Source: Promethearchaeota archaeon (GTDB lineage: Archaea > Asgardarchaeota > Lokiarchaeia > Sigyniarchaeales > SOKP01). From it: a DNA stretch of 64,000 nucleotides. The stretch is taken from assembly GCA_018238625.1 (NCBI GenBank), contig JABCSY010000008.1, positions 1 through 64,000 of the forward strand. The letters are read 5' to 3'. The notes beneath the pieces were generated by a model. That model was not told the DNA's origin, did not search any database, and saw nothing but the letters and a program-made list of their open reading frames with translations. The position numbers were made by a program, and so were the translations under genes. Of the stretch, positions 375-15,342 are shown piece after piece; positions within the stretch are counted from its first letter, which is position 1, and each line of letters opens with the position of its first letter.

Positions 375-871
375 CACAATATTCAATCATTTCAAATGCA
401 ACTCCTTTAATTGCATTCATTAAAAAAAATGAACTATCCATATTAAAAACCCTTTTTAAAGAAATAATTATTCCTAAAGCTGTTTATGATGAGATTTTAA
501 ATACACCTAGAACTTTAAATAAAGAAGGAGAGATTTTAAAGAAAGAAATAAAAAACAAATGGATTCGTATTAGAGAAATTACTAAACTAAAATTTTCTGA
601 ATTAAATCTTGGAAGAGGAGAAACCGAAGCACTTAATTTATGTATAGAATCCAATAACCCATTATTACTTATTGATGAAAAAAAAGCAAGGAATATCGCT
701 AAATCTTTAAAGATAGATGTATTAGGAACTATAGGGATATTATTACTCGTTAATAAAAGAGGGCTAAAAAATGAACAAGAAATATTAGAAAATTTAGATC
801 TTTTAATTAAAAAGGGGTTTTATTTGTCAAGCGAAGTAATTTTAGGTTTTTTAAATAAAATTAGGAAATGA
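371..871 (+). CDS. DUF3368 PIN-domain protein (VapC-like partner of UPF0175)
   Basis: ISNATPLI, IPKAVYDE, LGRGETEAL, LLIDEKKAR, VLGTIGIL motifs; coupled to the UPF0175 gene. Confidence 0.9.
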   Translation: MTQYSIISNATPLIAFIKKNELSILKTLFKEIIIPKAVYDEILNTPRTLNKEGEILKKEIKNKWIRIREITKLKFSELNLGRGETEALNLCIESNNPLLLIDEKKARNIAKSLKIDVLGTIGILLLVNKRGLKNEQEILENLDLLIKKGFYLSSEVILGFLNKIRK

Positions 872-1005
872 GTTATAAAATAAATTATAATATGTCTATT
901 AATTTAGATAATTTTAGTATATCGATTGATTATATTTGCATAGGGAAATATATCCATTTTCTCTTATTTCTTGTTTAATGTTCTATATTTTTCTATAACG
1001 ATAGG

Positions 1006-1251
1006 TTATTTAACCAGAAATACCATCAGACTAAGAACAAAGTAGTAGAGTTGATAAGGACTGACCATTATTCTTTCGATTAAACCCATGTAATTATTTT
1101 TGGCAAAGATGCCTGAGATAATTACAAGAATTAATGAAACTATAGCTGAAATGAGTGAGAACGTAGCAAAAGCACTCCATACTGCTACTAACTGTAATCG
1201 AAACCACAGTGCCACCATCCCAGCAATTGTGAATATTCCTATTGCAACCAC
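1006..1251 (-). pseudogene. 5'-truncated DUF998-like membrane protein remnant
   Basis: Three hydrophobic helices ending GLIERIMVSPYQLYYF, resembling the DUF998 C-terminal G-x-x-(E/Q)-R motif; no room for an N-terminal half before the HxlR stop. Confidence 0.5.
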
Positions 1252-1266
1252 AAGGTTGCAATATTT

Positions 1267-1707
1267 TTAGATCTTTCCCCGATGCATCCAAAAGAGAAAC
1301 AACGGTACTAATAAAAGAATTAATTTTCTCCCGTATTCGGTCAATTTATAAGACACGCCAACGGGGCGAGTGTTGTGGATTATCCTATCAAGAATCTTAT
1401 TTTCTTCCAATTCTTTTAATCGATCGTTAAGGATTCGTGAACTTATTTTTGGTAATCCTTTTTTTAATTCACTATAGTGGGATTCACCTAACACCAGTGT
1501 AAGATATAAAATATCAATTGTCCACTTACCTTGGATTAAACTTATTGCTTGGCGAAGGCCCTCTCTTTCCATATTAAGTCGATTGAGGTCGTGTGGAAAT
1601 TTATGTAATTCACGAACTACGCAATCCTCAGAAGTTTTTATAATTACAGGAATTAATTCCAAAAGTTCTTTAAAAGTTTCAAAATTTTCTTCATTCATTA
1701 AAATCAC
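1267..1707 (-). CDS. HxlR-family winged-helix transcriptional regulator
   Basis: LIQGKWTIDIL, YSELKKGLPKISSRILNDRLKELEE, VSYKLTEYG; divergent from a flavoprotein gene. Confidence 0.9.
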   Translation of the reverse strand: MILMNEENFETFKELLELIPVIIKTSEDCVVRELHKFPHDLNRLNMEREGLRQAISLIQGKWTIDILYLTLVLGESHYSELKKGLPKISSRILNDRLKELEENKILDRIIHNTRPVGVSYKLTEYGRKLILLLVPLFLFWMHRGKI

Positions 1708-1886
1708 ATATAGAAAGATGGTGTAAAATTATGCATCTTACGTTAAAAAAGTTCCTTTTTCCTTTATTAGGGAAGATTAAATTAATATAATTAACAATAA
1801 AAGTAATTGAAAGAAATGATGATACAATTAATTTTAAACTATATTTAATAGAAATTTAATTTTTGACTATTGGAGGATTAATTAAA

Positions 1887-2546
1887 ATGAAAGTGTTAGG
1901 AATAATTGGAGCTGCTCGTAAAAATGGAACTGTTAGTTCATTAACAAAAAAAGTTTTGGAAGGAACACAAGAAAATGGGAATTTAACAGAACTTATTAAC
2001 TTGTATGATTACGATATTCAACACTGTAAAGGTTGTTGGAGTTGTCATACGGGGAAGTGTACGATAGACGACGATTTTGAGAAAGTTTTTATTAAAATAA
2101 AAGAAGCAGATATTATTATTTTAGGAAGTCCAGTTTATTGGGCGAATATCTCAGGGATTATGAAAACATTTTTCGATAGACATACAGTTCACATGCATAA
2201 CCGATTCCCTGATGGACGTGATTTATGGAAACTTCCGACAAGAGAAAAAATTAAAAAAGGTAGAAATGCTTTGAAAAAATTTGGTCCCATGGATAGAGAA
2301 GATTTTAAGAAAAAGCAATATATCTTAATTGTAGCATCAACTGTTCCTTTTAAACACATCTTTGGTGGGAGAAAAGAAGTAGTTCCAACAATAAATGCAT
2401 TGAAAAGATATATTAACAAGTTACAAGGAAAATTAATTGGTAAACTCATTTACACGGATACATTGTTCCGATTTTTTAAGAAAAAAAGAGATAAAATGAT
2501 GAATAAAGCTTTTCGACTCGGAAAATCTCTTAAAAAAACGCCATAA
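1887..2546 (+). CDS. Flavodoxin-family / iron-sulfur flavoprotein (FMN_red)
   Basis: MKVLGIIGAARKNG start with GGAGG SD at 1872; CKGCWSC..C cluster motif; GSPVYWANISGIMKTFFDR. Confidence 0.9.
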   Translation: MKVLGIIGAARKNGTVSSLTKKVLEGTQENGNLTELINLYDYDIQHCKGCWSCHTGKCTIDDDFEKVFIKIKEADIIILGSPVYWANISGIMKTFFDRHTVHMHNRFPDGRDLWKLPTREKIKKGRNALKKFGPMDREDFKKKQYILIVASTVPFKHIFGGRKEVVPTINALKRYINKLQGKLIGKLIYTDTLFRFFKKKRDKMMNKAFRLGKSLKKTP

Positions 2547-2801
2547 GATTTGGGAAAAAACAAAAAGAAATGAGTAGAAGTTGAGATATTTTGAGGATAT
2601 GGAATCTTATTGATTATATAGACGACCCAATAGTTTTAAATGCGTTAAAAAAAATTATCACATTAAATTAGAAGAAATTAATAGTCTCTATTTGTTTTAT
2701 TTATTTAAAGATAAGATTTATTTGGTTAATCTTATTAGTTTTAAAGAATAATTTAGACGGAAAATATATTAAAATTAAAATATTTCATATGGGGTGATTT
2801 T

Positions 2802-2957
2802 TTGAGCAAACGAGGGAGAATGGGAGGATCTAAAGCTGCAGGACCGGGTGGTAGTTGCAAGTGTCCTAAATGTGGCAAAACTATGAAACATCAAGTGGGC
2901 ATACCTTGCTACCAGCAAAATTGTCCAAAATGTGGTACTAAAATGGTTAGAAAATAA
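2802..2957 (+). CDS. 51-aa Cys-rich double zinc-ribbon/metal-binding microprotein (not in the ORF track)
   Basis: Manual translation MSKRGRMGGSKAAGPGGSCKCPKCGKTMKHQVGIPCYQQNCPKCGTKMVRK; GGTGA SD before TTG. Confidence 0.85.
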   Translation: MSKRGRMGGSKAAGPGGSCKCPKCGKTMKHQVGIPCYQQNCPKCGTKMVRK

Positions 2958-3122
2958 GTAGATATTCATAAGACTTTAAAATATATTTATAATCCACTTT
3001 TTTTAATGAACGAATTTTCTTATATTTTATATTGTAGATTACGATGCGTACTTAATCGATCTTAAATTCCCTCTAAAAGATCATTAAATCTTATTATTTT
3101 TACCTTAATTTTTTAATAAGGT

Positions 3123-3374
3123 TATCATACGATTGATAATCGGTTTGTATTGGGTAATTTTTTATTTAATCTAATACTTGATTGAATAAAATTAAGTTAA
3201 TCTTTAAACAAAGATACTCAATTAAGTTAAAATTTAAATTTCAGTTAGGTTATTACTATGCTAATCAGCTTCCCGAACATGGGTCCGAACTGGGTGGCTT
3301 TTAAAACCTTATTCACGAGTCTTGATTTAGATGTGGTTGTTCCAGATCCAACTAATCGAGAAGCTATTAAGATT
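3123..3374 (+). repeat. Direct repeat copy 1 (upstream element + first 39 codons of a COG3581-like gene); copy 2 at 11625-11866
   Basis: 3123-3218 vs 11625-11720: 92/96 identical by manual alignment; coding part 36/39 aa identical. Confidence 0.95.
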
Positions 3375-3458
3375 CGAATAGAATCCTTCACTGAAATTAT
3401 TAAGCGCAAGAAGAGAATGCAAGCTGGAAAAAAGAAAGCGAAAAGAAGCGTGCAATAA
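3258..3458 (+). pseudogene. Deletion-scar chimera: N-terminus of a COG3581-like subunit joined to the C-terminus of a related reductase subunit
   Basis: Residues 1-39 match ORF 11750; then RIESFTEIIKRKK resembles the ends of ORF 3485 (RVESFVEMIRRKK) and ORF 6933 (RIEAF). Confidence 0.8.
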
Positions 3459-3484
3459 TCGTTTCGTACAATAATCCCAACCCT

Positions 3485-5911
3485 GTGTTTAACATGAGCG
3501 AAGAAAAACTAGCAATACATAAAAGAAAAGTAGAAGCGATCTCTGAAATGGTTAGAAATGCGTACGATAACGCGAAGCCGGGGGAATATTTCTCTCTAAA
3601 AAAGGCAAGCGTTTCCCACATGGCTCCACAGCCGGATAATCCGACCTATAGTGACAAGCCGATAGACGTGAGGTCACTTACAGACATTATTGAGATAAAC
3701 ACGGATACAAGGACGTGTATTGCAGAAGCAGGGATTACTTTTGTTAGGCTTGCAACAGAAACCTTAAAGTATGGGCTCGTACCGCAATGTGTTTCCGAGC
3801 TCAAGGGAATCACGATAGGCGGGGTAGTAGCAGGATGTTCAGTTGAATCCATGTCTTTCAAGTATGGGGGATTTTTCGATTCCTGTGAAGAAATAGAGAT
3901 TGTGACAGGAACAGGTGACATAATGTTATGCACGAAAAGTGATAACCATGAAATATTCGAGATGCTGCACGGGAGTTTCGGCACGATTGCAATCATCACG
4001 CTCCTGAAGTTCAAGCTCGTTCCAGCAAAAGAGTGCGTCCGCATCGATTACATCCGTTACGATACTTTTAGTGAATACATGGAAGCTATCAAGCAACACT
4101 ACGAAAAGCAGGATATTGAAATGATGGACGGGCTTATCTTCTCCGAGAATATGAACGTACTCTGCGTTGCCAGCTTCGTTGATGAGGAGGAAGCTCCTTA
4201 CAAGAGTGAATATTTCTACGATATTTATTACAAAAGTGCGATGAAAAAAAAGCGAGACTTCCTCTCCACCATAGATTATTTTTTCAGGTATGATGCAGAT
4301 TGCCACTGGTCGATACGGAATGTTGCTGGAGGAATTTTTGAGAATAAAGTAGTCCGGTGGTTAGTAGGGCCCTTTATACTTGGATCGACAAATATTCTTA
4401 AGATCAGCGAACGATTGCCATTTTTAACTAAGAAGGGGGGAGAACCGGACGTGATTATTGATGTCTTCATACCAATCACTCACGCGGAAGAGTTTTTCAA
4501 TTGGTACCTGGAGTTATTTGATTACTTCCCGGTTTGGATCGTCCCTTACCGCATGCAAAAAAACAAACTAGATGGGTACAAGTTCTACCCGTGGCTCAAT
4601 CAAGACATGATCGCTCCCATCGAGGATGAACTATTCATAGATTTTGCCATCTACGGGTTCGAGCAAAAAAGAAAGGGATTTAACTTCTATAAAGCGCTAG
4701 AAGAAAAGGTTCATGAGCTCAGGGGAATGAAAACCCTGATAACTCACAATTTCTACGAGGAAGACTTGTTCTGGAAGGTATATAACAAAAAATTTTACGA
4801 TAAAGTGAAAGAACGAACGGATCCCAAGAACCTATTTCGAAACTTGTACGAAAAGACGAATTATAAAAATCAGAAAAAGACTGAAAAGACGAAAAGACTG
4901 AAGGTAGGTATACCACGTTCCCTGTATTTCTACAAGTATTTTCCATTATGGGAAGGAATGCTTACAAGTCTTGGTTGCGAAGTTATTGTGAGTCCAGAAA
5001 CAAACAAAGAAATTCTTACCAACGGATCTAATCAATCTGCAACCGATTTATGCATTCCAGTCAAGATTCATTATGGTCACGTGAATTATTTATCGAGAAA
5101 TCACCCCGATCTAGATTTTATATTTGTTCCAAGACTCATTAGTAAAAGTAATGATCATTATTTTTGTCCGAAATTCCTGATCCTTCCAGATGTCACTCAA
5201 CACTCAGCAGTTTCTAATATTCCCGTTATTGAATGGATTTTTAATGCCAGGGAACATTCAATGATGAAATCAGCAATAGATTTTGGAAAAACATTAGATA
5301 AATCAAAAGAAGAATCAAAACTGGCGTATGAGAATGGATATAAAAAACTTGAAGAATTCCATGAGTTGATTGAGGATGGAATTCTTGTTCCTGATGCATT
5401 TTACAAAATGTATCCTTTTGAAAAATATCCAAATTATAAGTTTAAGAAAAGATTTCGACCTAAACTTAACAAAGATTATGAAAATTATCCACTTTCATTA
5501 ATGGTTCTTGGTCATCCATACAATACTTATGAATCAATTATTAATCATGGATTAATGGATATTCTCAAATCCAATTTTGTTGATGTTGTAACTGTTGAAA
5601 ATGCTCCAAAGGAAATCTTCTCAAGAAGAGTTGAAATTGATGATAATTTTTGCAATTTCTGGGATAATGAAGATGAATTGATGCAATTATCTGATTATGT
5701 TATACATAATGAAGAGATTGATGGGGGTATTTTCTTGATTTCTTTTGCATGTGGTCCTGATTCTTTAATTCAAGAATTGGTAATGCAGGATTTTGACATG
5801 AAAGATAAGCCTTATATTAATCTCACATTAGATGAACACACTGGAGAATCTCAAATAACTACAAGAGTAGAATCTTTTGTCGAAATGATAAGGAGGAAGA
5901 AATACAAATGA
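3485..5911 (+). CDS. Fusion: DHCR24/BfaA-like FAD-binding oxidoreductase (VAO/PCMH family) + DUF2229/COG3580 activase-partner domain
   Basis: N-part ITIGGVVAGCSVESMSFKYG, HGSFGT, YDKVKERTDPKNLFRNLYEK; C-part KVGIPRSLYFYKYFPLW, LCIPVKIHYGH, CPKF, SFACGPDS, LDEHTGE..TRVESF. Confidence 0.85.
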   Translation: MFNMSEEKLAIHKRKVEAISEMVRNAYDNAKPGEYFSLKKASVSHMAPQPDNPTYSDKPIDVRSLTDIIEINTDTRTCIAEAGITFVRLATETLKYGLVPQCVSELKGITIGGVVAGCSVESMSFKYGGFFDSCEEIEIVTGTGDIMLCTKSDNHEIFEMLHGSFGTIAIITLLKFKLVPAKECVRIDYIRYDTFSEYMEAIKQHYEKQDIEMMDGLIFSENMNVLCVASFVDEEEAPYKSEYFYDIYYKSAMKKKRDFLSTIDYFFRYDADCHWSIRNVAGGIFENKVVRWLVGPFILGSTNILKISERLPFLTKKGGEPDVIIDVFIPITHAEEFFNWYLELFDYFPVWIVPYRMQKNKLDGYKFYPWLNQDMIAPIEDELFIDFAIYGFEQKRKGFNFYKALEEKVHELRGMKTLITHNFYEEDLFWKVYNKKFYDKVKERTDPKNLFRNLYEKTNYKNQKKTEKTKRLKVGIPRSLYFYKYFPLWEGMLTSLGCEVIVSPETNKEILTNGSNQSATDLCIPVKIHYGHVNYLSRNHPDLDFIFVPRLISKSNDHYFCPKFLILPDVTQHSAVSNIPVIEWIFNAREHSMMKSAIDFGKTLDKSKEESKLAYENGYKKLEEFHELIEDGILVPDAFYKMYPFEKYPNYKFKKRFRPKLNKDYENYPLSLMVLGHPYNTYESIINHGLMDILKSNFVDVVTVENAPKEIFSRRVEIDDNFCNFWDNEDELMQLSDYVIHNEEIDGGIFLISFACGPDSLIQELVMQDFDMKDKPYINLTLDEHTGESQITTRVESFVEMIRRKKYK

Positions 5912-6939
5912 ATGAACCAGAATTTATCAAAAATATTCTTTCAGATGATGTGGATGACAAGTTATATCTAGGAATCGATGTCGGAAGTGTCTCCACGAAA
6001 TGTGCAATAATTAATGAGAGAAATGAATTATTGTATGCTACCTGGACCAGAAATGATGGTTCTCCCATTGTTTCTACACAAGAAAATCTAAAATACATGG
6101 AAGAAGTCCTTCCCGATAACATCGAAAAAAGTATTTGTGGTGTTGGGACAACAGGTTCTGCCAGGTATTTAATAAAAGCTCTTATCGGTGCAGATATAGC
6201 AAAACCTGAAATAATTGCTCATGCAATTGGAGCTTCAACTTATACCCCTGATGTGAGAACAATTCTTGAAATCGGGGGACAGGACAGCAAAGTTATATTG
6301 ATGAAAAATGGCATCGTAACAGATTTTAACATGAACAGTGTTTGTGCTGCCGGAACTGGTTCTTTTCTAGATCACCAAGCAGTTCGGATCAAGGTTCCAA
6401 TTGAAGAATTTGGGGATTATGCTCTTCGGGCAGAAGAGGAGGTTTCAATTGCAGGACGATGCACAGTTTTTGCCGAATCTGATATGATCAGTAAACAACA
6501 AGAAGGATATTCTAAAGAATCAATTATCAAGGGATTGTGTAAAGCTCTTGTTAGAAACTACTTGAATAATGTTTGCAAGGGAAAAAAAATGTATCCTCCC
6601 TTTGTATTCCAGGGAGGAGTTGCAGCAAATTCCGGAATAAAAAATGCTTTTGAAGAAGAATTGGGGTATGAAGTCATTGTTCATGAGAACTATTACGTGA
6701 TGGGAGCATTTGGTTCAGCCATTTTGGCAAAGGAACATGTAAATGGACAGATATCTTCTTTTCATGGCCTAAAAGTTAGTGAAATGAACTTGGCTCCAGG
6801 TTCATTTGTCTGTCCTGATTGTGCAAATAGATGTACAGTTAAATACCTTGTCAGGGAAGAAGATAAAAGTAGAGTAACTGGAAGAGAAAAGGATGATGCG
6901 ATATTTGCACGATGGAATAGTAGGTGCGGTAAATGGTAA
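5908..6939 (+). CDS. HgdC/BcrAD_BadFG-type ATP-dependent activase (COG1924)
   Basis: LGIDVGSVSTK, TTGSAR, EIGGQDSK, MNSVCAAGTGSFL, AGRCTVFAESD, FQGGVAAN; C-terminal CPDCANRC...RCGKW. Confidence 0.92.
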   Translation: MNEPEFIKNILSDDVDDKLYLGIDVGSVSTKCAIINERNELLYATWTRNDGSPIVSTQENLKYMEEVLPDNIEKSICGVGTTGSARYLIKALIGADIAKPEIIAHAIGASTYTPDVRTILEIGGQDSKVILMKNGIVTDFNMNSVCAAGTGSFLDHQAVRIKVPIEEFGDYALRAEEEVSIAGRCTVFAESDMISKQQEGYSKESIIKGLCKALVRNYLNNVCKGKKMYPPFVFQGGVAANSGIKNAFEEELGYEVIVHENYYVMGAFGSAILAKEHVNGQISSFHGLKVSEMNLAPGSFVCPDCANRCTVKYLVREEDKSRVTGREKDDAIFARWNSRCGKW

Positions 6940-8267
6940 ATGTTAGAGTTTCATTTTCACGAATGGGTTGGAGCTATATTTTTTTCAAAGGTTTATTCCA
7001 TGATCTTCCTGGTATTGAAGTTGTTGAACCCCCTCTAGTAAACACTGAAATCGTTAGTGAAGGAGTCAAAAATTCTCCTGAATTCGTTTGTTTTCCATTT
7101 AAAGTCATTCTTGGTGAAATGATAAACCTGTATCGTAATTATGATGTTAAAGATTTTGCGATGATTGCTGACTACGGCCCTTGTCGAGCAGGAATGTATG
7201 GTGTTGTCCAGAAAAGAATCCTGAAAAGCATGGGATTCAAGGATGTTAGAATGTTTTATCTACGTCAAGATGATTTCAGAAATCTTGAATGGCTAAGGGT
7301 ATTTCGTGATTTAGAAAAAAGAACAGGAAGAAAATTTGAGGACTATAAAGTTTTAAGAAACACACTCTTGTTCATGGTCAAAGCATACTATGTTGAAAGA
7401 ATAACCCATATTGAAGGACTTGTTAGATGTCGAGAAAAAAACAAAGCAATGACTACCAAAGTAGTTCATACTTTGATGAATTTACTTGATAACGAAAATA
7501 ATTTGATGAAATTATCTAATTTTGATAGAACGATAGATGAAAAATTTCGCAAGATTCCTATTGACAAGGAAATGGAACCTTTGAGGGTTTGTTATACTGG
7601 GGAAATCCAAGTCATGTTGGAGAAATGGGTTAATTATGATCTGATGGGAGAATTAGGCGTCATGGGTATCGAGGTTCACAAGCAGTATGATGTCTTTGAT
7701 TGGGTCATGTACAAACTTGACGCCAGCAAACGAAGAAGACGGCTTAAACATAGTGCAAGAAAGTATATTCCAATGGATATAGGAGGCGAGGCATTATGGA
7801 ACATGGGAAGTTATCTTGAGTCTCAAGAAAAAGGCTTCAACGGCTATGTACACATTTTTCCCTTCACCTGCATGCCTGAAATATCCCTCATGGGAATGTT
7901 AGAAGCTGAGAAAAACATGGACAAGTTTTACATGCCCCACATTCATTTTAGTCTTGATGGAAGTTCTGGTTTTGAAGGACTTAGAACAAGAATCGAAGCA
8001 TTTCATGATTTAATGGTTGGCAACAAGAAAAATAATCCCTTGTTTAGAGATGCCAAGTATGTGGTCCCGGATGAGATAAAAAATATATATTTTAAGCCGA
8101 AATCCAATTTTGAATATTTCGTGTCTAGTATTGAAACCCCAATGTCAAAGGTTTTAACAATGCTGAATCCATCAAAGAAATTAGATGTAGGATTCGCCGT
8201 TAAGAATGGACTCGAGTTTTTTTCAAGAAATTCGTTTTTTGGTATCGGATCTCTTTTTAACCTTTGA
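6933..8267 (+). CDS. COG3581/HGD-D-like Fe-S reductase-dehydratase subunit (PlsR-like)
   Basis: SPEFVCFPFK, GPCRAGMY, GEI, IGGEA, PFTCMPE, SGFEGLRTRIEAF. Confidence 0.85.
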   Translation: MVNVRVSFSRMGWSYIFFKGLFHDLPGIEVVEPPLVNTEIVSEGVKNSPEFVCFPFKVILGEMINLYRNYDVKDFAMIADYGPCRAGMYGVVQKRILKSMGFKDVRMFYLRQDDFRNLEWLRVFRDLEKRTGRKFEDYKVLRNTLLFMVKAYYVERITHIEGLVRCREKNKAMTTKVVHTLMNLLDNENNLMKLSNFDRTIDEKFRKIPIDKEMEPLRVCYTGEIQVMLEKWVNYDLMGELGVMGIEVHKQYDVFDWVMYKLDASKRRRRLKHSARKYIPMDIGGEALWNMGSYLESQEKGFNGYVHIFPFTCMPEISLMGMLEAEKNMDKFYMPHIHFSLDGSSGFEGLRTRIEAFHDLMVGNKKNNPLFRDAKYVVPDEIKNIYFKPKSNFEYFVSSIETPMSKVLTMLNPSKKLDVGFAVKNGLEFFSRNSFFGIGSLFNL

Positions 8268-8397
8268 GAAGCTATTTTGTTATGAAAGAAATATCAACAG
8301 ACTAAGAATGAACCTAAAATTAAAACCTTACTTTCAATTAACTTTATTTTTTAAGCAAATTATAATAAATAATAATATTGACTTTCTAGTTAGAATT

Positions 8398-9282
8398 ATG
8401 GATGAAATTGATTTTATCATTCTTAAAAAACTAATGGAAAACTCTCGCGTGACGTATAGAGAATTAGCAGAAATAATCGATATGTCCGTAAGCTCTACTC
8501 ATAAACGTATAAATAAACTTTTAGAAAATGGGGTTATCAAGGCATTTACTGCCCGACCAAGTGCAATAGCATTAAAATATCTATCTGTTATAGTTTTTGG
8601 TACTTCTAATGCAAAATCATTGGATGCTGTTAGTAAAGAGTTAGGGCAACATGAAAATATTAATAACGTTGCTATTGCAACCGGTAAAATGCTGTATATC
8701 TCTTCATATTTAAGAGATATAACAGGTCTTCGTGATTTTTCTGCTTATGTCTCAAAAACAGCTAATATAAGCGAACCTACTGTTGGAATTATGGATATAC
8801 CTTATATAACAACCCCAGAACCACTAACCACCATTGATTATAAAATACTAAAGTCTCTAAATAGAGATTCAAGGAAGCCTCTAACAGATATTGCAGATGA
8901 AGTAGGGCTTTCTGCTAAAACCGTTAGAAAACGATTAGATCGAATGATTGAGAATTACTTAGTAGAATTTACAATTGAAATGACCTTAAAATCTGAACAT
9001 AATTTGATTACAGGGTTCCATATATCTTTAAACGAAGGCACTAGCATAGACTCATCAATACAAAATATATATGAGAAATTTAAACAAAATGTTATTTATT
9101 GTATAAGCTATAGTAATATTCCTAACTTCTTTACAATGTATATATGGACAAAAGCGATTCAAAACTCCCAGAAAATTAACGAAGAACTACAATCTGAAGG
9201 ATTCAAAGATATTATTCCTATTATCTTCTTACATTCAGAATTTTACGATTGTTGGGTTGATCAATTACTTAGAACTAAATGA
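8398..9282 (+). CDS. Lrp/AsnC-family regulator with two HTH domains
   Basis: MDEIDFIILKKLMENSRVTYRELA and LTTIDYKILKSLNRDSRKPLTDIA; ATG 8398 preferred over 8206, which overlaps the previous gene. Confidence 0.88.
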   Translation: MDEIDFIILKKLMENSRVTYRELAEIIDMSVSSTHKRINKLLENGVIKAFTARPSAIALKYLSVIVFGTSNAKSLDAVSKELGQHENINNVAIATGKMLYISSYLRDITGLRDFSAYVSKTANISEPTVGIMDIPYITTPEPLTTIDYKILKSLNRDSRKPLTDIADEVGLSAKTVRKRLDRMIENYLVEFTIEMTLKSEHNLITGFHISLNEGTSIDSSIQNIYEKFKQNVIYCISYSNIPNFFTMYIWTKAIQNSQKINEELQSEGFKDIIPIIFLHSEFYDCWVDQLLRTK

Positions 9283-9566
9283 AATTGCGATTTTTTTCTA
9301 TTCCCAAATTTCACCTAAATGGCTAGAATTTTGGTAAATTTAGTTTCATTTTATTTCGAGATGAGGCTAAAAATGAGGACTTTATTGTTTTTTTTGATTA
9401 GTTTATTATTTTAGAATTTGAAAATTTCATCAAGAATCCCTCCCTACCATTTAAGGTAAATAAACACCCATGGTTGATTTTTTTCATTCTTGGCGAACAT
9501 GCTCTTATTAGAGCCCCAATCCCTATTAAAATTATAAAAAAAATAAAAAAAAATAAAAATAAATAG

Positions 9567-10382
9567 GTGATAAAAATTACACAAAATACCAAAACAACAA
9601 TATATTATTTCTCAGGCACAGGAAACTCATTACATATGGCCAAAACTCTTAAAGAAAAGCTAAATGATTGTGAACTTATACCGATTGCGGGTCTTATTAA
9701 TCAAGATTCCATAATCGCCACATCGGAAAAAGTTGGCTTTGTTTTTCCAGTGTACAATTGGGCTCTACCTAAAATCGTCGCTGATTTTATTGAGAAGATT
9801 GATTTAAGTAATATAAAATATATTTTTGCTCTTTGTACTAAAGGCGGTCCTGGCAGGCAGTATGTGATACCAATGATGAATAGTTTATTGAAACCAAAAA
9901 ACAAGCAACTTGATGCAGCATTCCTAATAAAAGTTTTTTCAGCTTTCATATTAGCCGGACACAACCCCATGCATTCAAAAGAAAAACAACTAAAAAGAAT
10001 AAAGGACGCTGAATTAAAATTAGATAAAATTGTTGAGATTATTCGTAATAATGAGAAAGGAAAGGGAAAGAAAGGTTCTATAATACCAATGAAAGGGACA
10101 TATAAATCTTTTATAGAGAAGGTAAATACTGAAGATGAAAACTACTATACAGATGAAAAGTGTAATGGTTGTGGAATTTGTCAAAAAATCTGTCCTGTCG
10201 ATAATATTAAACTCGTAAATGACAAACCTGAGTGGCAACATAAATGTCAACAGTGCTTATGTTGCCTCCATTATTGTCCCCAAAAAGCTATTCAATTTGG
10301 TGAATATACTCCAGGTAGGGAGAGATATAATCATCCACATATAAAAGTGAAGGAATTAATTAATCAAAAACAAGTAGTATAA
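9567..10382 (+). CDS. EFR1-family flavodoxin-ferredoxin fusion
   Basis: YFSGTGNS, GFVFPVY; CNGCGICQKICP and CQQCLCCLHYCP. Confidence 0.92.
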   Translation: MIKITQNTKTTIYYFSGTGNSLHMAKTLKEKLNDCELIPIAGLINQDSIIATSEKVGFVFPVYNWALPKIVADFIEKIDLSNIKYIFALCTKGGPGRQYVIPMMNSLLKPKNKQLDAAFLIKVFSAFILAGHNPMHSKEKQLKRIKDAELKLDKIVEIIRNNEKGKGKKGSIIPMKGTYKSFIEKVNTEDENYYTDEKCNGCGICQKICPVDNIKLVNDKPEWQHKCQQCLCCLHYCPQKAIQFGEYTPGRERYNHPHIKVKELINQKQVV

Positions 10383-10395
10383 AGGTGGAAACAAG

Positions 10396-10935
10396 TTGAA
10401 CAAGAGAGAAGCGATTAAAAGCTGGTTATCTGAACGCGTAGAGGAAGAATTGGAAGATTACGACGAACTCTCGTTGGAAGATCGTGTCATATCCATCGCT
10501 ATAATTATGGTTTTCCCCTTGATTGTGTTTTACTTCGTTGCCCATCAGACTTTATCAACAGGTTTTTTCACTGCAACATTCGGCACGTTGGAAATGGTCC
10601 TGCTGTATGGATCTCTGATTTATTGGATTTTTACATGTACCGTGTTATTACTTGAGCTCAAAGACCTCTCTCGCGACATAGATTCTTTTGGTGGGCTTTT
10701 TTTTGCCGCTGTCGGCTTTGCTTGGCTCTTTGTGGTCTTTCCCTTTGACTTTGCTTATTTTGCAGACGTGATGCCGGATTCCCTCAGATTTCTGGTACTG
10801 TGGGTTTCCAATGACATTGCTCGAGTGCTGTTGGTGCTAGGATTCATAGTGCATCTATTTTTGGCAGTATTCTCAGGGATACACCGCGTGATGGTTCGCA
10901 AGGAGCTCGCGCGAAGAAAAAAAATAAATAAATAG
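10396..10935 (+). CDS. Uncharacterised 4-TM membrane protein
   Basis: Four hydrophobic segments; AAGGTGG SD; visibly higher GC than neighbours. Confidence 0.7.
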   Translation: MNKREAIKSWLSERVEEELEDYDELSLEDRVISIAIIMVFPLIVFYFVAHQTLSTGFFTATFGTLEMVLLYGSLIYWIFTCTVLLLELKDLSRDIDSFGGLFFAAVGFAWLFVVFPFDFAYFADVMPDSLRFLVLWVSNDIARVLLVLGFIVHLFLAVFSGIHRVMVRKELARRKKINK

Positions 10936-10975
10936 GTAAATCTTATAATTTTTTTTTTAATTATGGAAAAGGTGA

Positions 10976-11464
10976 ATGAAAATAAAACTATGGATAATAC
11001 ATAAGAACGGAATTGGATTCTCAAAGATTATTGCTGAGATGGTTCAGGATCGTTTAGAAGATGATATTGATGTATCAGTAGGAAATGCCAAAAAGATTGA
11101 TCCTTCTTTCTTGTTGGAGGAAAAGTTAGATTACATAATTATCGGAGATATTATTAGTGAGGCAATACCTAGTTTAGAAATCCAAAAGTGGTTGTTAAAA
11201 TTCGGTGAAATTTCAAAAATTAATAATCTTATCCTTAAGGCTTTATCAGGTTTTTATATTGCAATAACTAATATTAAAATCGAACCACTCTGGGTTGAAT
11301 TTCTTCAAGAAAAAGTAAAAGCTGAAATAATCTACCCTCCAATATTACATTTAAAGTTAAATATAGCAGAATTTGCACTAGAAAATGGAGCTCTTGAATT
11401 AATTAAAGATTATTCTAATAATTTAATTGAATTTTTTATTGAGAATAAAAAAAAGAAAAACTAG
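10976..11464 (+). CDS. Degenerate flavodoxin-fold protein
   Basis: IIHKNGIGFSKIIAE resembles a decayed flavodoxin S-x-x-G-N-T loop; DYIIIG strand; GGTGA SD. Confidence 0.55.
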   Translation: MKIKLWIIHKNGIGFSKIIAEMVQDRLEDDIDVSVGNAKKIDPSFLLEEKLDYIIIGDIISEAIPSLEIQKWLLKFGEISKINNLILKALSGFYIAITNIKIEPLWVEFLQEKVKAEIIYPPILHLKLNIAEFALENGALELIKDYSNNLIEFFIENKKKKN

Positions 11465-11624
11465 AGTTGTAGAATATGGAAGAACAAAAGATTATTGAAT
11501 AATTTTTCTATAGTGATAATTCTACTCAGTTTTTTTATTAAGATTAATTTTACTATTTTAATAAGATAGGTTTATTGATATCTATTTTTTAATTATTAAT
11601 TTTACTCAGTTTTTTTATTAAAAA

Positions 11625-11720
11625 TATCATACGATTGATAATCTGTTTGTATTGGGTAATTTTTTATTTAATCAAATACTTGATTGAGTAAATTTAAGTT
11701 AATCTTTAAACAAAGATACT
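11625..11720 (+). promoter_or_regulatory. Conserved promoter/operator element: two ATCA-N6-TGAT palindromes plus a palindrome over the putative TATA box
   Basis: TATCA-TACGAT-TGATA (11625-11640), AATCA-AATACT-TGATT (11670-11685), ATCTTT-AAAC-AAAGAT (11702-11717); conserved at 3123-3218. Confidence 0.65.
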
Positions 11721-11749
11721 GACTATTAACTTGAGGATTTTTCCAAGAA

Positions 11750-12940
11750 ATGATAATTTCTTTTCCCAATATGGGCCCCAACTGGGTAGCATTTAAGACG
11801 CTATTTACAAGCCTTGGTCTAGATGTAGTTATTCCAGATCCAACGAATCGAGAAGCGATTAAGATTGGGGTAAAACACTCCCCCGAATTTGTGTGTTTCC
11901 CGTTTAAAGCGACTATTGGAGATTTCGTGAATGCTATAAAGAAGGGAGCAGATACGCTAGTCATGGCAATAGATTGTGGACCATGTAGATTTGGCTTTTA
12001 CGCGAGCGTCCAAGAACGTATTTTGAAGGATATGGGATATAAAAATATTACGGTTATCCCCCTCGACCAAGCAGATTTACTTGATTTTAAATGGGTCAAA
12101 ACTCTTCAAGAAGTTAGTGGTCGAAAGGACTTGTTTATGTATTCAAAGTTCGTTAAGGCTGTAATTCTTTTCCTAAAGAAAGCTAAGCTATTAAACGATA
12201 TTCAAACTGCCGAAGGTATCTTCCGAGCTTACGAGCGCAATCAGGGAGATACGACGGAATTGATTAGAAACTTATTGAATAAGCTTGATCAAGCTAATAC
12301 GCTCCCAGAATTGAGAAAATTCAAAAGCGTTATTAAGCAAGATTTTAGCAATTTAGATACAGATAAGACCCGAACGCCTCTACGGGTTGGTGTTTCGGGA
12401 GAGATTCACATTAATTTGGAACCATACGTAAATTTAGATATCCGTAGAAAGCTGGGTGAGATGAACATTGAAGTACACCAGAGCTTGAGCTTATACGATT
12501 GGGTTGTCCATAAATTCCATTTAAATTATCACAGAAAGTGGTTAGAACACCTTTCGCAACCATATTTACCGATGGACATTGGCGGAGAGGCGATGTGGGT
12601 GCTAGGTGAATATATAAATAAAGCTCAAGCGGGGTTTGATGGCTTCGTTCATCAATATCCGTTCCTCTGTATGCCAGAAGTGACGGCACGGACGATTTTA
12701 ACTAATAAACTTAAGGGAATTTACGATCTTCCCATCATTTACTTCTCTTTCGACGAGCAGAGCGGATTGGCGGGCTTCAGGACTAGGCTAGAAGCATTCT
12801 CTGACCTAATGTATGGTCGTAGGAATAAAGAAATTAAAAATAACGCCAAATTCGTAGCAAATGGTAATAAAAAGATTTATCCGCATTATGGCGGTTTATT
12901 TTATAATGAATGCGCTCAATTAATTCAAAATTCGGTTTAA
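11750..12940 (+). CDS. COG3581/HGD-D-like Fe-S reductase-dehydratase subunit (PlsR-like), paralog of 6933
   Basis: ISFPNMG, SPEFVCFPFK, GPCRFGFY, GEI, IGGEA, PFLCMPE, FDEQSGLAGFRTRLEAF. Confidence 0.87.
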   Translation: MIISFPNMGPNWVAFKTLFTSLGLDVVIPDPTNREAIKIGVKHSPEFVCFPFKATIGDFVNAIKKGADTLVMAIDCGPCRFGFYASVQERILKDMGYKNITVIPLDQADLLDFKWVKTLQEVSGRKDLFMYSKFVKAVILFLKKAKLLNDIQTAEGIFRAYERNQGDTTELIRNLLNKLDQANTLPELRKFKSVIKQDFSNLDTDKTRTPLRVGVSGEIHINLEPYVNLDIRRKLGEMNIEVHQSLSLYDWVVHKFHLNYHRKWLEHLSQPYLPMDIGGEAMWVLGEYINKAQAGFDGFVHQYPFLCMPEVTARTILTNKLKGIYDLPIIYFSFDEQSGLAGFRTRLEAFSDLMYGRRNKEIKNNAKFVANGNKKIYPHYGGLFYNECAQLIQNSV

Positions 12941-12958
12941 TGATAAAGGTGAGATTAT

Positions 12959-13984
12959 ATGGAAGAAGTTACTGAAAAAGTTACTAAAGTAGGAAAAAAA
13001 AAAGATGCTTTCCTTGGTATTGACATAGGAAGCGTGAGTTGCAAATTTGTTTTAATGGATACAGATGGAAATTTACTTACTAGCGTGTTTTTACGAAATA
13101 GAGGTTCTCCCATCGACTCAGCCAAGGCAGGAATGGCCGAGTTACGCGATAACATAGAAGAAAGCGAAAATTTAGGCGATTACGAGATTCGTTGCTGTGG
13201 TACCACAGGTTCGGCACGGTATCTAACAAAAGCAATCGTTGGTGCCGATCTCGCTAAAACCGAGATAATAGCCCACGCAGTTGCAGCGCAAACTATCTAT
13301 CCCGATGTAAAAACGATATTAGAAATTGGCGGTCAAGATTCGAAAATTATCATTCTACGGGACGGAATAATCGTAGATTTTGCGATGAATTCTGTATGCG
13401 CTGCTGGAACGGGTTCATTTCTCGATCACCAAGCAGCGAGGCTTGGGACAGTTATAGAAGATTTTGGCTCTTACGCTATAAAATCAAAAAATCCTGTAAG
13501 TATTGCGGGAAGATGTACTGTTTTCGCAGAGTCTGATATGATTCACAAGCAAAACGCGGGTTACTCTAAAGAGGATATTATTGCAGGTTTATGCGATTCA
13601 CTTGTGCGCAACTATATGAACAACGTAGGTAAGGGCAAAGACTTAGAAGAACCCATTGTATTCCAAGGTGGCGTTTCTTACAACGAAGGGATCATTGAAG
13701 CATTTGAAAGACATTTAGGTTGCAAAGTAATTGTTCCTGAATATAATGTCCTAATGGGGGCTTTAGGAATGGCAATTTTGGTTAGAGATTTCTATTTAGA
13801 GCACGAACATCAAACCGTATTTCGAGGACTCGAAGTATCAGATATTGAGTTCACGACATCAGCGTTTAACTGTGGAGATTGCCCGAATAACTGCGAAATA
13901 GTCCAAGTAAAGATGCCTCAAGAAGGAAATAAGATTATAGCACGCTGGGGCTCTCGTTGTGGTAAATGGGATCAAGTAGATTAA
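12959..13984 (+). CDS. HgdC/BcrAD_BadFG-type ATP-dependent activase (COG1924), paralog of 5908
   Basis: LGIDIGSVSCK, EIGGQDSK, CAAGTGSFL, RCTVFAESD, CGDCPNNC...RCGKW; AGGTGA SD. Confidence 0.92.
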   Translation: MEEVTEKVTKVGKKKDAFLGIDIGSVSCKFVLMDTDGNLLTSVFLRNRGSPIDSAKAGMAELRDNIEESENLGDYEIRCCGTTGSARYLTKAIVGADLAKTEIIAHAVAAQTIYPDVKTILEIGGQDSKIIILRDGIIVDFAMNSVCAAGTGSFLDHQAARLGTVIEDFGSYAIKSKNPVSIAGRCTVFAESDMIHKQNAGYSKEDIIAGLCDSLVRNYMNNVGKGKDLEEPIVFQGGVSYNEGIIEAFERHLGCKVIVPEYNVLMGALGMAILVRDFYLEHEHQTVFRGLEVSDIEFTTSAFNCGDCPNNCEIVQVKMPQEGNKIIARWGSRCGKWDQVD

Positions 13985-14146
13985 TTTCGAATTATATAAT
14001 CTAATCTTTTGATAACATACTTTTCAAACTATTATTGTATTTATAACCTTTAAATTTAATAAACGAATATTTGAATAAAAATAAGAAAAAACATATCTAG
14101 TAGAGTTATTAAAATATTGTCCAATTTTTAATAAAAGAGAAGTAAA

Positions 14147-14341
14147 ATGACAGAATTTTTTAAGCAATTAAAGGACTTGGGCGAGGGTTTTCTCGAGTCC
14201 TTGCAACATAATACAAAACTATCGACAATATTTGATATTTATTTAGAAAAAGTAATCCCTTCATTTGTTTCCGAAAAAGAGTTAAAGGAATATTACGAGA
14301 GACGGATGGAGGAAGTTAATAACTTCATAGACAAACTATAA
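14147..14341 (+). CDS. Small helical hypothetical protein
   Basis: 64-aa ORF, 14 bp before the acyltransferase on the same strand. Confidence 0.6.
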   Translation: MTEFFKQLKDLGEGFLESLQHNTKLSTIFDIYLEKVIPSFVSEKELKEYYERRMEEVNNFIDKL

Positions 14342-14355
14342 GCGAGGGAAAAAAG

Positions 14356-15045
14356 ATGGTTGAAACATCTTCCGAGGAGACGGAAACGAAAGGAAAAGAT
14401 AAGGTGCTTAGTAAGAATCTTATGGAAGACATTTTTTACGCAGTTACCAAAGGTTTAGGAAACTTTGGTTTAACGGCATTCGCAGACTTACAAATTGAAG
14501 GGCGTGAAAACGTACCTATTATAGGAAGAGCGATTTTAACTACGATTAGCCACAACGCGTTAAGAGATATGGCGATTATAAGTCAAGTTACTGGACGAAG
14601 AGTTCACTTTATGGTCCATCATAAACTGATGAAGAATCAAATGTACGGGCCCGTTCTTAAGTCGTTAGGCATGTTTCGCAGTACCCTCGATAAGGACGAT
14701 ACCATACCTATAGATAAAGTGTTCCACTATCTTAACGAAGTTGGGGATCTTGTAGCCATGACGCCGGAATCAAAACTTACACCCGAAATTCAGGTGAAAG
14801 CAATGGCGGGAATCATTAAATTTGCAGTTGCTGGAAAAGCACCTATAATCCCCATAGCAATATACACGGAAAACGCGAAAATTTTAGGTATGTTTAAAAC
14901 ACAGGGGTTAAGAGTAAAAATCGGGACCCCACTTAAGGTAGAGAAACGATTGTCTCGACCAAAATATCGAGATGAGAGATACGAACTCGCTGAGGATATT
15001 TTAAGAATTATTGATTCCCTTAAACCAGAACCCGATATTGAATAA
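14356..15045 (+). CDS. PlsC/LPLAT-family lysophospholipid acyltransferase
   Basis: IEGRENVP, HX4D (HNALRD), VHFM, MTPES (variant of FPEG), APIIPIAI, VKIGTP. Confidence 0.85.
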   Translation: MVETSSEETETKGKDKVLSKNLMEDIFYAVTKGLGNFGLTAFADLQIEGRENVPIIGRAILTTISHNALRDMAIISQVTGRRVHFMVHHKLMKNQMYGPVLKSLGMFRSTLDKDDTIPIDKVFHYLNEVGDLVAMTPESKLTPEIQVKAMAGIIKFAVAGKAPIIPIAIYTENAKILGMFKTQGLRVKIGTPLKVEKRLSRPKYRDERYELAEDILRIIDSLKPEPDIE

Positions 15046-15078
15046 ATATAAAATTAAACATAAAAACGAGGTTTTATT

Positions 15079-15342
15079 ATGGAAAAGAGCCAAAGTTCAG
15101 AACTGAACAATTTTCAAATAAACATAAGTAGTTTAAGTGAAGAGTTAGAACACAGAAAAGAAGATCTTATAAAAGAATTAAATATCCCTGGAAAGATTGA
15201 GCCCTCGTCTGAACCAAATGTGGATTTAGGCGATGTTATAGGAGATATCTTCTATGAATCGATGAAAAACTTCTTTGAAGTAGGGTTTAAACTTGCCGAA
15301 AGTTTAAGTCTTGAGTTTAACACAGTAAATCAGGATGAGTAA
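15079..15342 (+). CDS. Hypothetical acidic protein
   Basis: 87-aa ORF with GAGG SD, co-oriented after the acyltransferase. Confidence 0.6.
   Translation: MEKSQSSELNNFQINISSLSEELEHRKEDLIKELNIPGKIEPSSEPNVDLGDVIGDIFYESMKNFFEVGFKLAESLSLEFNTVNQDE

Follow-up and report, generated by a model that had tools for sequence, protein, structure and literature searches.

A conserved acyltransferase-linked operon with a split DUF2229 reductase in Lokiarchaeia and its possible role in ester-to-ether lipid chemistry

Herein, a window of 64,000 nucleotides from a Promethearchaeota archaeon was analyzed by computation (positions 1-64,000 of contig JABCSY010000008.1, forward strand; the genome is G000 in our genome set and is 97.9% complete). 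The window contains the downstream two thirds of a conserved lipid operon of Lokiarchaeia, and the first three genes of this operon are located on another contig of the same genome, C10. The operon combines acyltransferases of the PlsC/AGPAT type with a split DUF2229 reductase, which is composed of a COG3580-like subunit, a COG3581-like subunit, and an HgdC-type activase. The best reading of this gene set is ester-to-ether lipid chemistry. By analogy, the reductase would turn a glycerolipid ester made by the acyltransferases into a vinyl or alkyl ether, a reading that is held here with about even confidence. The lipid context is drawn from gene linkage, and the chemistry is drawn from distant homology to the only DUF2229 enzymes with a tested function.

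Protein families were assigned with Pfam and NCBIfam profiles, and bit scores were compared with the family cut-offs. The genes called as open reading frames (ORFs) between 3258 and 15342 are co-oriented on the + strand, and the ORFs named in an earlier note on this DNA, which was made from the letters alone, are all present there. The genes of the operon are listed below, with protein lengths in amino acids (aa).

Contig C10, first gene, same strand as the next two: HAD phosphatase, 260 aa
Contig C10, second gene: double acyltransferase, 558 aa; PF01553 171.6 bits in two stretches; TIGR00530 150.6 bits against a cut-off of 102.95
Contig C10, third gene: COG3580 protein (COG3580b), 358 aa; DUF2229 (PF09989) 148.2 bits; HGD-D 28.2 bits
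3485-5911, + strand: fusion protein, 808 aa; FAD_binding_4 49.9 bits (residues 59-149); DUF2229 153.8 bits (473-705); HGD-D 30 bits (723-802)
5908-6939, + strand: HgdC-type activase 1; BcrAD_BadFG (PF01869) 162 bits; TIGR00241 188.2 bits against a cut-off of 125.4
6933-8267, + strand: COG3581-type subunit of set 1 ('Red2', COG3581a), 444 aa; N-terminal piece of DUF2229 only (first ~55 positions), 27.1 bits, below the cut-off of 29.4
11750-12940, + strand: COG3581-type subunit of the ancestral (type A) operon (COG3581b), 396 aa; DUF2229 44.1 bits; its orthologues come after COG3580 in type-A operons
12959-13984, + strand: HgdC-type activase 2, of the ancestral operon; PF01869 164.5 bits; TIGR00241 198.1 bits against a cut-off of 125.4
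14147-14341, + strand: p64, 64 aa, no family, between the activase gene and the small PlsC-like gene; no Pfam match even at E<=10
14356-15045, + strand: small PlsC-like protein, 229 aa; PF01553 38.2 bits; TIGR00530 38.2 bits, below the cut-off of 102.95
15079-15342, + strand: p87, 87 aa, no family, after the small PlsC-like gene in close relatives; orthologues 39-83% identical; no Pfam match even at E<=10

The split reductase is present as two paralogous sets, set 1 at 3485-8267 and set 2 at 11750-13984. The COG3580 gene of set 2 was found on contig C10 (5,986 bp) when the genome was searched with PF09989. The two sets are 41% identical in their COG3581-like proteins and 54% identical in their activases. 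This indicates that the sets are old paralogues and that no recent copying took place. Both activases exceed the TIGR00241 cut-off, and their description as HgdC-type in the earlier note holds. Orthologues of p64 are found in L044/L102, L073, L081, and L082 (43-78% identical; 5 distinct sequences were aligned).

The acyltransferase of the operon is the 558-aa protein on contig C10. The HX4D and PEGT motifs define the PlsC/AGPAT enzymes, and the 558-aa protein contains both motifs twice, in addition to the PF01553 and TIGR00530 matches. At least two HX4D and at least two PEG[TG] motifs are present in 23 of its 27 double-domain orthologues. A genome-wide search placed all three PF01553 domains of the genome within this operon. 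Two PlsY-like (PF02660) matches were also seen side by side in the genome (G000:C148:81818-83744), in open frames of 404 and 407 aa, which is about twice the usual PlsY length.

Contig C10 probably abuts the start of the window. In the metagenome contig L180, the genes for HAD, the double PlsC, COG3580b, an RHH antitoxin, a PIN-like protein, and the fusion follow each other, which corresponds to C10 followed by the first genes of the window. In the metagenome contig L186, the whole operon is found on one contig, including the set 1 arrangement. The gene order of L180, together with L186, supports a direct join between C10 and the start of the window. Breaks at this locus are seen in many assemblies. 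The window itself starts with a toxin-antitoxin-like pair at 69-871, in which an RHH/UPF0175 protein is encoded at 69-374 and a DUF3368 PIN-like protein at 371-871. In L180, the same two genes separate COG3580b from the fusion.

The conservation of the operon was examined by searching 41 related genomes and a draw of 251 phylum genomes with the C10 COG3580 protein. From these, 46 regions were taken, and their ORFs were compared with the window proteins by blastp. The order of the type-A operon is HAD, PlsC-like (two genes or one double-domain gene), COG3580, COG3581, activase, p64, small PlsC-like, and p87. The operon is intact and uninterrupted in six genomes (G016, G006, G026, G177, G210, and G080). 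In family f2, which includes two single-contig genomes, the order is PlsC, PlsC, COG3580, COG3581, activase. A class-level relative of family f5 and a Helarchaeota-labelled locus carry an 872-876-aa multi-PlsC protein and a 490-aa HAD-containing protein ahead of the triad.

The linkage was then expressed as counts. A hidden Markov model was built from 31 Asgard PlsC-like ORFs, and each distinct COG3580-type gene with at least 2 kb of upstream sequence was checked for a PlsC-like ORF on the same strand in the 3 kb ahead of it. Identity and locus number defined the groups, and the presence of PlsC played no part in this. Such an ORF was found for 36 of the 39 Asgard type-A genes, for 6 of the 21 DHCR24-like fusions, and for 3 of the 6 BBD-970 genes, these three being inserted in a type-A operon. 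The counts were 0/12 for Asgard type-B genes, 0/50 for bacterial split genes, and 0/6 for fused genes. Linkage to plsC, which the earlier note had proposed as a check, is therefore conserved in type A, and it spans families f1, f2, f3, and f5, one Helarchaeota-labelled locus, and one Woesearchaeota-labelled locus.

The nearest bacterial split triads are 31-39% identical and were collected at 58 loci (L109-L166) in Bacillota, Actinomycetota, Chloroflexota, and Calditrichota. They share the three genes, the type-A order, and the conserved cysteines with the archaeal triads and belong to the same major clade. They differ in their surroundings. Upstream, spoIIAB, sigF, spoVAC/AD/AE, and a GerA-family gene are found (8-16 loci each); downstream, a lysA-like decarboxylase, a PALP enzyme, a CBS-polyA-polymerase, and an M50 protease are found (8-16 loci each). 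The spore formers carry the triad between the spoVA operon and lysA and without an upstream acyltransferase gene. The position between the spoIIA/spoVA genes and the lysA-like gene suggests a sporulation-linked role for the triads of spore-forming Bacillota.

These neighbourhoods bear on an alternative that is considered distinctly unlikely, namely that the split triad has a general non-lipid function and that the PlsC neighbourhood is a lineage-specific arrangement without shared chemistry. It would agree with the lack of upstream PlsC among the bacterial and the Asgard type-B genes, with the sporulation and lysine genes next to the bacterial triads, and with set 1, which is often alone (15 of the 21 fusion genes are without a nearby PlsC). 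However, the linkage is tight and co-oriented across at least four GTDB families and the Helarchaeota- and Woesearchaeota-labelled loci, despite rearrangements in which PlsC is single, double, or triple, fused or not. Every PF01553 domain of this genome is in the operon. In addition, a DegV-family (fatty-acid-binding) gene lies directly upstream of a co-oriented type-B triad in another Asgard family (L076 6681-7637; G223). This neighbour hints at a second, independent pointer to a lipid context; it was seen at one locus among the 12 type-B genes, and the Pfam annotation of neighbours covered L052, L053, L076, L077, and L078.

The reductase subunits have the fold and the cysteines of the 2-hydroxyacyl-CoA dehydratase superfamily. 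An AlphaFold2 model of the C10 COG3580 protein (pLDDT 85.9, pTM 0.83) matches HadB/C ((R)-2-hydroxyisocaproyl-CoA dehydratase), DCCP, BzdNO, and MbdON with TM scores of 0.49-0.55, a probability of 1.00, and 13-16% identity. There were 17 structure matches with E<=0.001, and 13 among the 15 listed are of the HadBC/DCCP/BzdNO/MbdON type. Three cysteines of COG3580 (C66, C104, and C292) are invariant in 112 sequences. Three cysteines of COG3581 are 99-100% conserved in 109 sequences, corresponding to C53, C84, and C313 in set 1 and to C49, C79, and C307 in the protein of the 11750 gene. A cysteine pair is present in 100% of 100 activase sequences (C146/C185 in activase 1 and C147/C186 in activase 2), and these residues are, by comparison with HgdC, presumably the cluster ligands. 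After the ATPase domain, the activases carry a C-terminal CxxCxxxC...C motif that is conserved at 98-100% in the 100 split-triad sequences. The motif spans residues 302-340 in the product of 5908-6939 (C302/C305/C309/C340) and residues 305-334 in that of 12959-13984. This extension aligns into the second activase domain of fused proteins and may be an extra metal or Fe-S (iron-sulfur) site; to our knowledge, it is not part of the description of HgdC.

At the sequence level, the subunits are not bona fide HgdAB or benzoyl-CoA reductase subunits, although they have the fold of that superfamily. Against HGD-D (PF06050), the match of the window reductase proteins was limited to profile positions 262-342 of 342, which corresponds to their last ~80 residues, with a score close to the gathering threshold. 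The NCBIfam equivalogs scored far below their cut-offs (HadC 17.2 bits against 700; double_cubane 17.8 against 350). A grouping with true 2-hydroxyacyl-CoA dehydratases or benzoyl-CoA reductases, which would have spoken against the earlier note, was thus not found by sequence. A PDB sequence search with the 396-aa COG3581 protein gave no match even at E<=10. In comparison with HgdAB/HadBC and their activases HgdC/HadI, with BzdNOPQ/MbdONPQ, and with DCCP and DCCP-R, the archaeal system is alike in the predicted COG3580 fold, in the three cysteines per subunit, and in the TIGR00241-type activase. It differs in the low identity of the structural alignments, in the partial HGD-D match, and in an operon without coenzyme A (CoA)-handling genes.

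The same likeness leads to a second alternative. The triad could be an ATP-dependent dehydratase or reductase that acts on a soluble acyl thioester (2-hydroxyacyl-CoA or enoyl/aryl-CoA) and tailors the chain before the acyltransferases attach it to glycerol phosphate. This is regarded as unlikely. HadBC, BzdNO, and DCCP, which share the fold and the cysteines, act on CoA esters or small molecules, and an enoyl intermediate could equally be what the DHCR24-like domain of set 1 reduces. Inside the PlsC/HAD/triad operon of a class-level relative, a homologue of the LarA-family nickel-pincer 2-hydroxyacid racemases is also encoded (L074 11480-12862, minus strand; G263; NF052593 247.9 bits, below the cut-off of 500). 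However, no conserved CoA-transferase, CoA-ligase, or acyl-carrier gene was found in the operon by blastp and Pfam annotation, membership of the HGD-D and benzoyl-CoA reductase families fails by sequence, and the only DUF2229 proteins with a tested function, according to passages of PMC13159169, act on lipid esters.

The domain set leads back to the lipid ester reductases. In the passages seen of PMC13159169 and PMC9702350, lipid ester reductases are the only DUF2229 proteins with a tested function, and the architecture of Ger is given as BBDHDDH with tandem activase domains (PMC13159169). By blastp, the activase, COG3580, and COG3581 proteins align one after another with ten fused proteins of 1395-1481 aa, at residues ~320-650, ~670-1000, and ~1040-1400, respectively; the fused proteins contain two activase domains and DUF2229. 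A search for longer homologues gave 12 proteins without names, and the only name among cluster members was that of a Coprobacter 'acyl-CoA dehydratase activase'. The split triads therefore carry the domains of PlsA/PlsR/Ger, with PF01869 in the activase, one domain per gene, and the DUF2229 and HGD-D pieces following colinearly. The archaeal system is thus like PlsA/PlsR of Clostridium perfringens and Ger of Thermotoga maritima and Desulfatibacillum alkenivorans in the BcrAD_BadFG, DUF2229, and HGD-D-like pieces, in colinearity, in the conserved Fe-S cysteines, and in the anaerobic lifestyle of the organism. It differs in that it is split into three genes, has one activase domain instead of two, and falls in a separate clade. 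Unlike the fused forms, it is also encoded with AGPAT-type acyltransferases and a HAD phosphatase. A HAD-family protein (ElbB) and an AGPAT-like domain (ElbD) are likewise used for ether lipids by the myxobacterial elbA-E genes (PMC9131029, in the part seen). That likeness is by gene family only, and the elb system differs in its aerobic FAR/AGPS-like ether chemistry and has no DUF2229 protein.

A phylogenetic tree of the COG3580 domain was calculated with a quick IQ-TREE run on 80 rows and rooted at the midpoint. Beforehand, 33 rows with at least 80% identity to a kept row were dropped, as was every second bacterial split row (27). Asgard type A and set 1 form one clade within the split clade (99%, 21 rows). 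Set 1 and the unfused L105 nest inside the type-A clade beside the family-f2 sequences (99%). Asgard type B, which is 30-40% identical, forms a separate clade (100%) among bacterial sequences. The triads did not group with the proteins of PlsA/Ger architecture. From the colinear domains and the separate clade, the window proteins share the domain set and order of PlsA/Ger and not their clade, as judged by stand-ins. The assignment of the PlsA/PlsR/Ger domain set in the earlier note is thus right for the domains and their colinearity with the fused architecture, and not for a common group.

Lokiarchaeia also encode fused proteins (1389-1482 aa) and two-gene pairs, which are probably the 'Ger homologs' mentioned in passages of PMC13159169. 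The pairs were seen in Lokiarchaeia of family f1 (L038 10975-15335, L089, L092, L095, L173, and L174). In each, the first gene encodes a ~970-aa (BBD) protein with DUF2229 and two activase domains, and the second gene encodes a ~465-aa protein without a Pfam family; the two-gene layout is like that of plsA-plsR. In several genomes the pair is located right after the type-A COG3580 gene, which brings up to three paralogous systems to one locus.

Taken in order, the proposed mechanism would run as follows. The co-encoded AGPAT-type acyltransferases would make an acyl ester of a glycerolipid. The COG3580 and COG3581 subunits would, by analogy, form a heterodimer that carries Fe-S clusters, and the activase would spend ATP to deliver a low-potential electron to it. 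Reduction and dehydration of the acyl ester would then yield a vinyl or alkyl ether, in the manner of bacterial PlsA/PlsR and Ger. In set 1, the DHCR24-like flavoprotein fused to the COG3580 subunit would add a step of C=C reduction.

Several observations weigh against the ester-to-ether reading. Three type-A genes are without an upstream PlsC (L042, L045, and L051), and so are the 15 fusion genes counted above, because set 1 often stands alone. The related genomes are kin, so that 36/39 overstates the independent support. No lipid neighbours were found for the bacterial triads at the 58 loci, where any PlsC-like ORF within 8 kb was present at 1 locus. Identity to the fused forms is low, 20-30% for COG3580 and 20-29% for COG3581 over long alignments. 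In the tree, 61 split rows are separated from 19 fused and ~970-aa BBD rows by a branch with 100% SH-aLRT support, and the PlsA/Ger side of this comparison is composed of proteins of the same architecture, as stand-ins for the validated PlsA, PlsR, and Ger. Finally, lipid analysis of a cultured Lokiarchaeon gave archaeal lipids only, and its authors allow that ester lipids were possibly missed (PMC13400652, in the part seen).

The small PlsC-like protein of the window also belongs to these points. It had been described as an HX4D acyltransferase, and both the PF01553 match and the motif (H66-x4-D71) are present in the window copy. The histidine is not conserved. In 12 distinct orthologues, the position is His in 1 (the window), D in 5, K in 4, P in 1, and unread in 1, and TPES-like residues replace PEGT. 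With the TIGR00530 score far below the cut-off, the protein lacks the marks of a PlsC/AGPAT enzyme. The loss of the histidine in 11 of the 12 orthologues and the TPES residues indicate by sequence that it is probably non-canonical or non-catalytic, and the canonical AGPAT-type enzyme is the one on C10.

Transcription was approached through RNA libraries. Four metatranscriptome libraries, taken from four studies, gave contigs that match 3454-8241 with 92-99% identity, and one library also covers 11829-13666 and the bin 14041-14580. These contigs demonstrate presence in RNA libraries, and carried-over DNA is a possible source, which again limits the support. In the four libraries, no contig was found on 1-3240 and next to none on 8641-11340 (depths 0.22 and 0.06 in X19). 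Since both stretches vary between strains, the thin RNA cover there says nothing about transcription.

The fusion protein of set 1 (3485-5911) is composed of a DHCR24-like FAD oxidoreductase (residues 1-465) and a COG3580-type subunit ('Red1', residues 466-808, with DUF2229 and the C-terminal piece of HGD-D). The earlier note had recognized set 1 as a COG3580 fusion with an activase and a COG3581 protein; these families were confirmed, and the DHCR24-like domain at the N-terminus, which it had not named, is additional. The C-terminal half is 42% identical to the stand-alone COG3580 protein of contig C10. Stand-alone homologues of ~450 aa resemble the first 465 residues with up to 62% identity, the highest being a 'FAD-binding oxidoreductase [Candidatus Sigynarchaeota archaeon]'. 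The same part is 56% identical to a 563-aa Anaeramoeba protein named 24-dehydrocholesterol reductase (NCBI, UniRef; automatic names), and one homologue (P0005) falls nearest to an ESM Atlas cluster with the automatic name delta(24)-sterol reductase. Among solved relatives of the flavin domain, cytokinin dehydrogenases were best, and alkyl-DHAP synthase was remote (E about 1e-4). The likeness to the DHCR24 family (FAD, VAO/PCMH-type) lies in residues 1-465, and the difference is the fusion to an Fe-S reductase subunit.

The fusion has a narrow distribution. The DHCR24-like part was found in 19 of the 251 phylum genomes, namely in family f1 (17 of 54, plus G000) and in G071, and in none of the other 191. 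Wherever the DHCR24-like part is complete in these genomes, the ORF is fused. Five genera of f1 (g1, g12, g13, g15, and g16) gave matches to the fusion or to the DHCR24-like part, and a restriction of the fusion to close relatives (three clusters at 88-98% identity) was rejected on this ground. In a metagenome scan, the fusion was found in 29 of 59 loci at 90-99% identity (27 whole or cut, 2 frame-broken), and activase 1 and then COG3581a follow downstream wherever the sequence continues. In G071, a member of family f19, the DHCR24-like match has 94% identity and possibly stems from a binning error. The limitation of the fusion to part of one family indicates an add-on and not the core function.

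In sterol side chains, DHCR24 reduces the double bond of the terminal isoprene unit. The DHCR24-like domain fits a further step of C=C reduction in the present system. Asgard archaea are without sterol precursor synthesis, as stated in part of PMC8237579, which argues that the substrate of the domain is not a sterol. This leads to a third alternative, in which the system modifies isoprenoid lipids: the PlsC-like enzymes would acylate a lyso-archaeal lipid, and the reductase with the DHCR24-like domain would reduce or saturate it to a mixed or full ether lipid on an archaeal backbone. The fusion of the DHCR24-like domain to the reductase speaks for it, as does the need of the flavoprotein for another lipid substrate; chimeric lipids have also been proposed for Lokiarchaeota (passages of PMC6737245). 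It is nevertheless judged very unlikely, in view of the narrow distribution of the fusion given above and of the annotated loci, where no isoprenoid gene was seen in the operon.

Within the ester-to-ether reading, a tentative and rather unlikely extension is that set 1 is a self-contained saturated ether-lipid synthase. Its ATP-driven Fe-S reductase would make a 1-alk-1'-enyl (vinyl) ether from the acyl ester of a glycerolipid, and the fused DHCR24-like domain, within the same complex, would reduce this to a saturated alkyl ether.

Stand-alone DHCR24-like genes were also inspected in the metagenome loci L202-L233. Clusters of neighbouring ORFs were common only to close relatives (at most 3 loci), so that these genes give no informative context; by Pfam, the neighbours in L202 and L204 are Ras/Roc GTPases, MFS, radical SAM, and AAA proteins. 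L216 is the sole locus among them with a DUF2229 neighbour. On this bacterial metagenome contig (6987-13732), a stand-alone DHCR24-like gene (42% identical) and a PlsA/Ger-type gene are arranged tail to tail, and the latter encodes a 1479-aa protein with two BcrAD_BadFG domains and DUF2229. The pairing hints that the association of DHCR24-like and DUF2229 proteins arose more than once.

The two sets were brought together by insertion. Three features upstream of the sets, listed below, mark the event.

3091-3218, + strand: copy of the non-coding region before the set-2 operon, a probable promoter captured by set 1; 128-nucleotide direct repeat, 89% identical to 11593-11720
3258-3458, + strand: 66-codon chimeric ORF (recombination scar); the 5' ~39 codons are of the COG3581b type, and the tail is of the COG3580 C-terminal type
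11593-11720, + strand: non-coding region upstream of set 2, a probable promoter and the original of the 3091-3218 copy, from the repeat and its alignment

As read from the alignment, the core of the promoter copy (~3120-3220, ~100 nucleotides) is about 95% identical to the stretch before 11750. In the coding sequence, 3258-3398 is 76% identical to 11750-11890, and the homology stops after codon ~39. The start of the 66-aa ORF matches the starts of COG3581b orthologues at 54-83% identity, and its tail aligns with the 3' ends of COG3580 genes. By its sequence, this ORF is read as a scar that marks the left boundary of the set 1 insertion. The fusion, activase 1, and COG3581a lie between the ancestral COG3580 and COG3581 genes in G000 and in part of the genus to which it belongs. 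The comparison points to set 1 as a paralogous three-gene module that was put into the older operon between these two genes. The system had been called duplicated; two paralogous sets are indeed present, and an inserted module describes them better than a duplication.

In genera g15 and g16, set 1 stands alone elsewhere (L069-L072), with proteins 87-94% identical to those of the window, and the type-A COG3580 in those genomes reaches only 72% identity. Set 1 is seen as a mobile module that came from the same Asgard clade and spread recently among genera. An unfused relative of set 1 was found in L105, a locus labelled Woesearchaeota, with PlsC, COG3580 (56%), activase (66%), and COG3581 (56%). 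As a separate observation, L088, L092, L099, and L105 are labelled Hodarchaeota, Thorarchaeota, Hermodarchaeota, and Woesearchaeota, with genes 56-82% identical to the operon of this Lokiarchaeon, and G071 carries copies 88-94% identical to it. Inconsistent labels or binning, or a recent transfer, are the likely causes.

Between the two sets, four further genes are located.

8206-9282, + strand: regulator with two AsnC-type HTH domains (Pfam HTH_24 and HTH_AsnC-type)
9567-10382, + strand: EFR1 ferredoxin (flavodoxin-ferredoxin fusion); NF038196 247.3 bits against a cut-off of 75
10396-10935, + strand: hydrophobic 179-aa protein, no family; no match in Pfam or NCBIfam
10976-11464, + strand: 162-aa protein, no family; nothing better than E=0.03 in Pfam

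The AsnC regulator and the EFR1 ferredoxin are thus present between the sets as described earlier, and the 'flavodoxin-like' label of the gene at 10976-11464 found no confirming Pfam match. The start of the regulator is uncertain; its ORF overlaps the preceding gene, and the first HTH begins at residue 65. All four genes are absent from the other Asgard loci examined. At the AsnC position, relatives carry other genes, an AsnC fragment of 107-130 aa, or no gene at all. The stretch is therefore a variable insert, and the inclusion of these genes in the system was not borne out. By blastp, an EFR1 match was found in no Asgard locus but the window, and within 10 kb in 3 of the 58 bacterial loci. 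EFR1 was rejected as a dedicated electron donor in the sense of a conserved feature, because its absence from every other Asgard locus examined indicates that it is not a conserved part of the system; it is a possible electron donor.

Other genes of the window were recorded as well. Just upstream of set 1, a divergent pair at 1267-2546 encodes an HxlR-type regulator on the minus strand (1267-1707) together with an NADPH-dependent FMN reductase or flavodoxin-like-fold protein (1863-2546); the pair was not seen at that place among the relatives examined. A homocysteine S-methyltransferase-family gene adjoins a gene for an MttB-family methyltransferase at 21627-23978. A GDSL lipase/acylhydrolase gene (24942-25637, minus strand) and an FGGY-family sugar/glycerol-type kinase gene (37220-38845) are also present. 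None of 10 ORFs between 20 and 39 kb of the window was tied to the reductase-acyltransferase system.

Parts of this gene repertoire have been reported before. PlsC/PlsY homologues (PMC6737245) and 'Ger homologs' (PMC13159169) in Lokiarchaeota are mentioned in passages of the respective papers. A literature search for DUF2229, COG3580, COG3581, and PF09989 returned the Ger papers and, beyond these, only a sponge preprint and surveys on unrelated subjects. Among the titles, abstract starts, and searched passages, no paper was found on the PlsC-triad operon or on the DHCR24-like fusion in Asgard archaea.

The finding bears on the capacity of Asgard archaea for non-isoprenoid lipids, a central open point in models of the 'lipid divide' and of eukaryogenesis, since the Asgard archaea are the closest known relatives of eukaryotes. 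In this genome, a single operon holds every PlsC-type domain together with a distinct split DUF2229 reductase, and this operon is conserved across Lokiarchaeia. A scattered gene list is thereby turned into one defined unit of five to eight genes for expression, for assay, and for the searching of transcriptomes and lipidomes. The operon is also present in metagenome-assembled genomes labelled Promethearchaeum, the genus name of a cultured Lokiarchaeon. The DHCR24-like fusion provides a mechanistic handle and would be an unexpected non-sterol role for that enzyme family. If set 1 is a saturated ether-lipid synthase, then, taken with the ancestral PlsC-linked set, Lokiarchaeia would make non-isoprenoid or mixed ether glycerolipids, in which chains of the bacterial and eukaryotic type are joined by an archaeal-type linkage, and a DHCR24-type enzyme would have a role in the membrane lipids of Asgard archaea that is unrelated to sterols. 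If the system acts on something else, the operon would give a first functional context to a family of at least 2,611 representative clusters, the split members of which are functionally unassigned. The operon offers a concrete means of testing whether these relatives of eukaryotes make non-archaeal lipids.

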